DNA of 64,000 nt. Source: a virus. A model generated the notes under the pieces. That model saw only the letters and a program-made list of their open reading frames with translations. It was not told the origin of the DNA and ran no database searches. The stretch lies in IMG/VR virus record IMGVR_UViG_3300045988_089196; one strand, written 5' to 3'. Each line of letters starts with the position of its first letter. Positions within the stretch are counted from its first letter, which is position 1. Made by a program: the position numbers and the translations under genes. Positions 12,866-12,942 of the stretch are shown one piece after another.

Positions 12866-12942
12866 GGCGCCTTCCTCTAAATGGCATAGGAAGCCGGAAC
12901 CTCACTCCGGCAATATGAGTTCGAATCTCATAGGCGTCACCA
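12866..12942 (+). tRNA. atypical tRNA. The anticodon region is GCCGG-AACCTCACT-CCGGC, which is either a 9-nt loop or a 6-bp stem with CUC (Glu).
   Basis: Acceptor GGCGCCT/AGGCGTC. T-arm ATGAGTTCGAATCTCAT. CCA. The anticodon loop cannot be placed canonically. Confidence 0.45.

Follow-up and report, generated by a model that had tools for sequence, protein, structure and literature searches.

How a tRNA can do without the near-universal uridine at position 33 is the question raised by a gene in IMG/VR virus record IMGVR_UViG_3300045988_089196, whose 64,000 nucleotides of DNA are referred to here as the window. The initial annotation, made from the letters of this DNA, had offered two drawings of the anticodon region of this tRNA: one with a 9-nt loop, which would make it a frameshift or quadruplet decoder, and one with a 6-bp helix closing the loop ACCUCAC, with anticodon CUC (Glu) and no U33. 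Our analysis upheld the second drawing and contradicted the first. The element is a genuine tRNA gene of a large uncultivated phage and not a chance match, as judged from ARAGORN, its Rfam score, a cloverleaf minimum-free-energy (MFE) fold and the presence of the same gene in many independent metagenome assemblies. We think that it is probably a functional phage elongator tRNA-Glu(CUC) with an ordinary cloverleaf, a 7-nt loop and C33, and that it would decode GAG.

Fold and anticodon loop of the tRNA-Glu(CUC) gene

ARAGORN called positions 12866-12942 as tRNA-Glu(CUC). Covariance-model (CM) folding, which the initial annotation had proposed as a check, gave an end-to-end match to Rfam RF00005 with a 7-nt loop and C33, at 37.9 bits (E = 2e-6 in a 621-nt search; gathering threshold, 29 bits). 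The gene is absent from a 20-kb Rfam run with default filters at the gathering threshold, and its CM score is among the two lowest of the tRNA array. ViennaRNA also gave a cloverleaf as the MFE structure (-28.4 kcal/mol, z = -3.7), its anticodon helix 6 bp long and its loop 7 nt. Homology to the tRNA-Glu D arm rules out the shifted D stem of that fold (UUCCU/AGGAA); covariation is uninformative about the D-stem register, as the D arm was fixed by our search patterns. On the + strand, the first half of 12866-12942 reads GGCGCCT TC CTCT AAATGGCATA GGAA G CCGGA ACCTCAC and the second half, after the loop, TCCGG CAAT ATGAG TTCGAAT CTCAT AGGCGTC A CCA. The parts of the gene are as follows.

12866..12942 (+): tRNA-Glu(CUC) gene, 77 nt, from ARAGORN, Rfam RF00005, the cloverleaf MFE fold and orthologue covariation
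Acceptor stem: GGCGCCU / AGGCGUC, 7 pairs, one of them G2.U71
Positions 8-9 and 26: U8 C9 and G26
12875..12892 (+): D arm, with stem CUCU/GGAA and D loop AAAUGGCAUA containing G18 G19
12894..12910 (+): anticodon arm, with stem CCGGA (12894-12898) / UCCGG (12906-12910), from the CM alignment and ARAGORN
12899-12905 (+): 7-nt anticodon loop ACCUCAC, that is, A32 C33 C34 U35 C36 A37 C38
12900 (+): C33, where the near-universal U33 of the U-turn is expected, by direct sequence reading
12901..12903 (+): anticodon CUC, which reads GAG, flanked by A32 (12899), A37 (12904) and C38 (12905)
Variable loop: C44 A45 A46 U48 (4 nt)
T arm and 3' end: AUGAG-UUCGAAU-CUCAU, followed by A73 and CCA
12939 and 12940-12942 (+): discriminator A73 and encoded CCA, by sequence reading

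The sound acceptor stem, T arm and CCA of the initial annotation were borne out by this direct reading, G2.U71 being one of the seven acceptor pairs, and the anticodon region GCCGG-AACCTCACT-CCGGC has the sequence that had been given for it. The stems are those of an elongator-type cloverleaf (7-bp acceptor, 4-bp D, 5-bp anticodon and 5-bp T stems), and the gene has the other features of an elongator tRNA, namely a purine at position 37 (A37), G18 G19, the T loop UUCGAAU and an encoded A73-CCA; U33 is the feature that it lacks. The window allele also has a C10.A25 mismatch in the D stem (12875/12892), which the CM alignment marks as a non-canonical pair, whereas the sister alleles in loci L008, L085 and L090 carry G25 and hence C10-G25. 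G26 (12893) and C44 (12911) can pair and extend the anticodon helix to 6 bp, so the "6-bp stem" first described is the standard 5-bp stem 27-31/39-43 plus a Watson-Crick G26-C44 pair.

Set beside bacterial elongator tRNA-Glu (RF00005; E. coli reference), the phage tRNA shares the cloverleaf geometry and 7-nt loop, U8 C9, U11-A24, U13.G22, G18 G19, A21, a 4-nt variable loop with A46, U35 C36 A37, UUCGAAU and CCA. It differs in having C33 for U33, A32/C38 for C32/C38, C10-G25 (C10.A25 in the window allele) for G10-C25, G2.U71 for U2-A71, the Watson-Crick pair G26-C44 and C34 as the wobble base.

Orthologues were collected by pattern scans of IMG/VR, JGI metagenomes and GTDB genomes, with an exonuclease gene (9110-10000) and a zinc-ribbon open reading frame (ORF; 12584-12823) as synteny anchors; INPHARED, which covers cultured phages, held no relative of the region. 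Initial IMG/VR scans gave two contigs only. Relaxing the D-arm pattern returned 72 loci, among them four new ones carrying the tRNA (L045, L046, L055 and L065), the other new loci being apparent chance matches. The sole addition from a T-arm/acceptor pattern was an unrelated 498-kb contig with U33 in all four of its Glu tRNAs, and the GTDB scan gave one useful locus, L014.

Ten distinct orthologues made up the covariation set (eight sequences in a smaller version). Under the 7-nt-loop cloverleaf, 98.2% of helix cells in these ten were paired, and compensatory, two-sided changes were found in 9 of the 22 pairs, including 31-39. The covariation score was 0.41 compared with 0.17 for shuffled data, none of 500 shuffles reaching the observed values, and pairing dropped to 37-48% in controls in which the structure was slid along the alignment. 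Pair 4-69 occurs as all four Watson-Crick types among the orthologues, and pair 26-44 as G-C, A-U or G-U. Neither the anticodon nor A37 differs in any orthologue, in contrast to positions 32, 33 and 38.

These data bear directly on the size of the loop. Pair 31-39 is C-G in seven of the ten orthologues (L003, L005, L007, L010, L014, L046 and L065), A-U in two and G-U in one, with A-U being the pair of the window clade. Because 31-39 covaries, we reject the 9-nt loop. An expanded loop that decodes four bases or promotes +1 frameshifting could draw on the weakness of the closing A31-U39 pair and on A32.C38, which could breathe, leaving nominally nine unpaired bases; we nevertheless consider it extremely improbable, since 31-39 changes from C-G to A-U while loop geometry is unchanged in the orthologues closed by C-G, and since all three structure methods (ARAGORN, Infernal with the Rfam model, and ViennaRNA) return 7 nt. 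The +1 frameshift sites that would suit such a decoder were sought with a crude junction scan, which found no excess of GAG-N (9, against 10 for GAA-N), and all of the candidate +1 junctions were ordinary gene overlaps. Known frameshift suppressor tRNAs have 8-nt loops, which also counts against a loop of nine. With sufD-type frameshift-suppressor or quadruplet tRNAs, the phage tRNA shares only the superficial option of drawing extra unpaired bases; unlike them, it has a loop of 7 nt by covariation and no inserted base relative to its orthologues.

The absence of U33 stands, as no 7-nt loop containing it can be drawn, let alone a better-scoring one. The loop has a single U, the U35 of the anticodon; a 7-nt loop that takes this base as U33 was rejected, as it would have the anticodon CAC, a pyrimidine at position 37 and no stem. 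In locus L087 we observed a separate tRNA-like gene (949-1023) whose acceptor stem is AT-rich and mismatched and whose anticodon loop has 8 nt (ARAGORN 'tgtt'). If real, this gene would be a stronger quadruplet-reader candidate than tRNA-Glu(CUC).

Distribution and polarity of C33

U33 is present in 30 of the 31 ARAGORN tRNAs of the window, tRNA-Glu(CUC) being the sole exception. Sequencing error was ruled out as the origin of C33 by the occurrence of the same base in at least 12 independent assemblies (Logan, ENA, JGI and IMG/VR), in all of which the ACCUCAC arm is identical. Besides the window, the carriers of this loop are L001, L008, L011, L085, L086, L088-L092 and L097, whose flanks diverge by 0.1-8% from the window. 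Three alleles occur within this clade, differing at position 25 of the D stem (A or G) and at position 57 of the T loop (G or A). Other loops of the family are as follows.

L003, L007, L010/L045, L046, L055: CUCUCAA, U33
L065: CUCUCAC, U33
L005: CCCUCAA, C33
L014: CCCUCAC, C33

Three lineages of the family thus carry C33 and six carry U33. Unrelated Glu(CUC) backbones at or beside the locus (L085/L086 2732-2808; L093-L096) all have U33, and with these as outgroups a neighbour-joining tree, which is weak at about 75 nt, clustered the three C33 CUC lineages. From the six U33 lineages, the U33 of the outgroup backbones and this grouping, sequence comparison indicates that the change from U33 to C is derived within the phage tRNA-Glu(CUC) family. 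The loops line up stepwise as CUCUCAA, CCCUCAA, CCCUCAC and ACCUCAC.

The window and L014, both with C33, differ by two-sided changes at 27-43, 29-41, 31-39, 52-62 and 4-69. Five double substitutions between C33 carriers argue that the tRNA was under structural selection after C33 had been acquired. The gene, its structure, its conservation and the derived state of its C33 are shown by these sequences. Literature searches turned up no account of C33 in phage tRNAs; its absence from the searchable literature is not proof of novelty.

Two loci of the survey have further unusual tRNAs. L014 is the GTDB metagenome-assembled genome contig CANQQR010000001.1 ('uncultured Bacilli', 139.6 kb), in which both Glu isoacceptors (2895-2969 and 3347-3419) have C33 together with C55 (T loop UCCGA). 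The tRNA-Tyr of the same locus also has C55, and CCA is encoded in none of the eight tRNAs there. L005 has, at 2182-2258, a tRNA-Cys(GCA) with the loop CC-GCA-AA; among 197 distinct tRNAs, it is the one case outside the Glu tRNAs in which U33 is missing.

Probable decoding of GAG and the persistence of C33

As a working elongator, tRNA-Glu(CUC) would be transcribed together with the neighbouring tRNAs from a phage promoter, processed, and then charged by the glutamyl-tRNA synthetase (GluRS) of the host. It would decode GAG, an abundant codon in the phage: the long ORFs of the window have 376 GAG (39%) and 583 GAA (61%) among their Glu codons. The GluRS determinants of E. coli tRNA-Glu are present in the sequence (U11-A24, U13.G22..A46, no nucleotide 47, and U35 C36 A37). 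G1-C72 is present too, pair 2-71 is G.U where the E. coli identity set has U2-A71, and the wobble base is C34, as in natural CUC isoacceptors, where that set has a modified U34.

C33 should be compatible with decoding, probably at lower efficiency, to judge from eukaryotic initiators and engineered U33C tRNAs. U33 is conserved in elongators, the exceptional cases named being Candida tRNA-Ser(CAG), with G33, and many eukaryotic initiator tRNA-Met, with C33 (PMC5041475). The initiators are a natural, functional class of tRNA with C33 (Grosjean & Westhof 2016, PMC5041475), and the L005 loop CC-CUC-AA has their frame of C32 C33 ... A37 A38; unlike the initiators, which bind directly to the P site and have the anticodon CAU, the phage tRNA is of the bacterial elongator type and has CUC. 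When expressed, a U33C allele of yeast tRNA-Gln(CUG) gave more pseudohyphal growth, a phenotype that the authors tie to inefficient CAG decoding or charging (PMC3664417).

Several points weigh against a working GAG decoder. The C10.A25 mismatch is a second blemish of the gene, and its 37.9 bits compare with 48-74 bits for all but three of the other tRNAs in the array. Close relatives can do without the Glu(CUC) gene or have another in its slot, L087 having no such gene there and L093-L096 having another backbone, so selection on Glu(CUC) may be weak. Were the host a Bacillota species with tRNA-Glu(UUC) alone, its GluRS might, to judge from work on B. subtilis GluRS, charge a C34 tRNA poorly. 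Conservation of the D arm is unusable as evidence because our search patterns required that arm, which makes it invariant by construction. Finally, expression, charging, decoding and any effect on fitness are deduced from sequence.

For a functional tRNA-Glu(CUC), the most economical cause of the persistence of C33 would be that an accessory tRNA tolerates the change, because the neighbouring UUC isoacceptor is also able to read GAG; C33 could then be tolerated drift. A canonical tRNA-Glu(UUC) had been reported nearby by the initial annotation, and ARAGORN confirmed it at 12477-12551. Also in favour of drift are the accessory nature of the slot and the mosaic composition of the arrays, in which GIY-YIG and HNH genes lie between the tRNAs.

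A different cause would refine this reading without displacing it: the loop may have been remodelled adaptively, making the GAG decoder a poor substrate for a putative anticodon-loop RNase or modifying toxin that needs U33 or uridines and comes from the host or a competing phage, so that phage translation would continue when host tRNA-Glu is attacked. We regard such counter-defence as unlikely, although several features of the tRNA would fit it. The loop has gone from C32/U33/A38 to A32/C33/C38 and pair 31-39 from C-G to A-U, with the anticodon and A37 unchanged and a single U left in the loop. In a biased sample of related sequences, 6 of 34 distinct Glu tRNAs have a base other than U at position 33, compared with 1 of 163 others; this enrichment is inflated by ascertainment and shared ancestry, and we do not rely on the Fisher test (p = 1e-4) for the same reasons. 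C33 occurs in both Glu isoacceptors of L014, on backbones that group with different lineages, and L085 and L086 retain the C33 gene beside a canonical Glu(CUC). Genes of the window for an RNA ligase, polynucleotide kinase, phosphoesterase and Thg1-like enzyme fit counter-defence circumstantially, and T4 uses an RNA-repair kit of similar type against the anticodon nuclease PrrC. Working against counter-defence, the CUC tRNA cannot rescue GAA, which makes up 61% of Glu codons, the window's own Glu(UUC) still has the U-rich loop CUUUCAC, and a nuclease specific for tRNA-Glu(CUC) is a postulate.

Published precedents point in both directions. Loop mutations in phage tRNAs are predicted to block anticodon nucleases (PMC10264068), and tRNA-Glu, Lys, Gln and Thr are the preferred targets of Cas13a, which cleaves them at uridines of the loop (PMC11042736). 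Gamma-toxin no longer cleaves the tRNA-Glu anticodon stem-loop if a purine occupies position 32, but this toxin, the sole Glu-directed nuclease with mutational data, is unaffected by C33 (PMC2275089). The phage tRNA resembles phage tRNAs that have been proposed or shown to escape tRNA-targeting defences in its large array, in loop changes that flank an unchanged anticodon (ACCUCAC, compared with CUCUCAA of phage orthologues) and in its accompanying RNA-repair genes. Examples are the loop substitutions of van den Berg et al. 2023 (PMC10264068), T5 tRNA-Lys in relation to PARIS (PMC11464382) and tRNA-Tyr in relation to retron effectors (PMC11555353). Unlike in those cases, the likeness here is in anatomy alone, and both resistance and nuclease are hypothetical; none of the terms U33, C33 and "position 33" occurs in the main text of van den Berg et al. 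2023 (PMC10264068). That the loss of U33 and the 32/38 swap were a selected escape from a putative uridine- or U33-dependent RNase, and arose more than once among the Glu tRNAs of this large gut phage group, is a tentative proposal that we would not expect to hold.

We consider decay still less probable, and doubt that the gene is a decaying or non-functional pseudogene in a mosaic array shuffled by homing endonucleases. The loss of U33 is coupled with the C10.A25 mismatch, the CM score is low and the gene was missed by default Rfam filters; some relatives have nothing in this slot, or a different gene, GIY-YIG and HNH genes separate tRNAs of the arrays, and the L014 orthologue is also without U55 and an encoded CCA. 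Against decay, compensatory changes have kept every helix, with 98.2% of cells paired and a single C.A mismatch, and the anticodon, A37, G18 G19, T loop and CCA of the window allele are intact. The sequence is identical across many samples despite 4-8% divergence of the flanks, and C33 has outlasted at least five double substitutions.

The tRNA array, the wider phage genome and the meaning of C33

The immediate surroundings of the gene contain the following features.

11981..12009 (+): second upstream promoter match, 11/12
12161..12189 (+): promoter match TTGACA-17-TATAGT, 11/12, the nearest strong sigma-70-like site upstream
12477..12551 (+): tRNA-Glu(UUC), loop CUUUCAC, 73.7 bits; canonical, and syntenic with the CUC gene in relatives
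12584..12823 (+): 79-aa zinc-ribbon ORF (CPNCG...C..C), conserved, between the two Glu tRNA genes
12832..12858 (+): 27-nt element AGACCTAAGCAAGTCGATAAACTGCTT, directly 5' of tRNA-Glu(CUC)

Glu(UUC) lies about 300 nt upstream of Glu(CUC). The zinc-ribbon ORF between them gave no PHROG match; ten homologues were found, all at 65-97% identity, and it occupies the same place in L003. On the + strand, no terminator-like site was found before the next promoter match, at 14509. The promoter matches and the lack of an intervening terminator-like site suggest co-transcription with the Ala, Glu(UUC), Met, Ser, Thr and His tRNAs, probably as a polycistronic unit Ala-Glu-ORF-Glu-Met-Ser-Thr-His that starts at the upstream promoter. 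Near-consensus promoter repeats, each 11/12, were seen at 9987-10015, 10337-10365, 10592-10620, 11981-12009, 12161-12189 and 14509-14537; five are TTGAAA-N17-TATAAT and that at 12161 is TTGACA-N17-TATAGT. They sit in AT-rich direct repeats of 50-60 nt that are spaced through the tRNA array. The 27-nt element has a copy with 89% identity at 21484-21510 (repeat family D11), upstream of the tRNA-Met at 21517, and a related copy precedes tRNA-Met in L008; it is possibly a processing signal.

The array as a whole comprises about 33 tRNA genes, a tmRNA and a ROOL RNA. The phage tmRNA (tag DNDYFENYLAA) and the full-length ROOL RNA (350 bits) lie within it at 16376-16691 and 18987-19582, and L003 has an orthologous tmRNA. 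The gene that follows tRNA-Glu(CUC), tRNA-Met(CAU) at 13230-13304, scores only 30.2 bits and is atypical, the CM alignment showing it to be without nucleotides 8-10 and one 3' acceptor base; most of the close relatives having this locus nevertheless keep it at the same position. Default ARAGORN missed tRNA-like elements at 19849-19967, 20241-20325 and 13843-13873, among which are a 119-nt Rfam tRNA match (50.9 bits) with an insert of about 42 nt in the anticodon arm, a weak tRNA match of 32.4 bits and an orphan T-arm-like repeat. Syntenic tRNA content differs among close relatives, with genes replaced, duplicated or missing, and GIY-YIG/HNH homing-endonuclease genes lie between tRNAs in L085 (4139-4744), L086 (2273-2536) and L088 (453-1070). 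The differing content and the homing-endonuclease genes together indicate cassette-like turnover of the array.

RNA and tRNA repair genes, at 35910-37184, 42054-42788, 42739-43626 and 43688-44170, encode an RNA ligase (phrog_968), a metallophosphoesterase, a Thg1-like 3'-5' polymerase (phrog_4717) and a polynucleotide kinase (phrog_505), a set that suggests pressure from tRNA-cleaving defences. A fusion of a PIN domain with a PhoH-like ATPase is encoded at 45975-47231; PIN domains include VapC-type tRNases. The cluster for NAD salvage and synthesis at 37423-41990 (isochorismatase/nicotinamidase, PRPP-synthetase-like protein, NAPRTase and NAD synthase) possibly counters NAD-depleting defences. 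Directly upstream of a gene for an 811-aa protein with major-vault-protein (MVP) repeat and shoulder domains (30794-33229) lies one for a TROVE/Ro60-like RNA-binding protein (DUF2828 + DUF7788; phrog_850) at 28891-30414. The phage collection gave only three matches, LR756500, LR756501 and LR756503, records of uncultured huge phages (462 and 735 kb), at about 38% identity.

In some of its genes, the phage also appears to decode TAG as Gln, with a suppressor tRNA(CUA); such recoding is known in phages. In-frame TAG codons number 10, 4, 9, 11 and 3 in the genes at 7949-8962, 10804-11325, 48142-49548, 56756-57667 and 57948-58574, and the gyrase and MVP-like genes are among those that have none. 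Taking TAG as sense increases the total ORF content by 33%, compared with 3% for TGA. Internal repeats align TAG with Q (DLTGQKFGRL and DLTG[TAG]RFGRL), and TAG falls at the Q position of a ThyX-like motif. The tRNA(CUA) at 27795-27869, which ARAGORN calls 'tRNA-Pyl(CUA)', looks Gln-like, with an unpaired U1 and G73.

U33 is treated as conserved in elongators because the U-turn presents the anticodon, and here a tRNA of the bacterial elongator type has retained C33 while diverging substantially in sequence. Annotation pipelines that filter their covariance-model searches can overlook such genes, which are real yet low-scoring. To tRNA biology, this one offers a natural test of whether U33 is dispensable on bacterial ribosomes. 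If C33 is merely tolerated, it is a minor curiosity. If it is adaptive, position 33 would join the anticodon-loop sites that phages alter against tRNA-directed immunity, and the change would point to a new tRNA-Glu-directed nuclease in the host clade; were counter-defence the true cause, an elongator tRNA would have traded its most conserved loop nucleotide for evasion of immunity.

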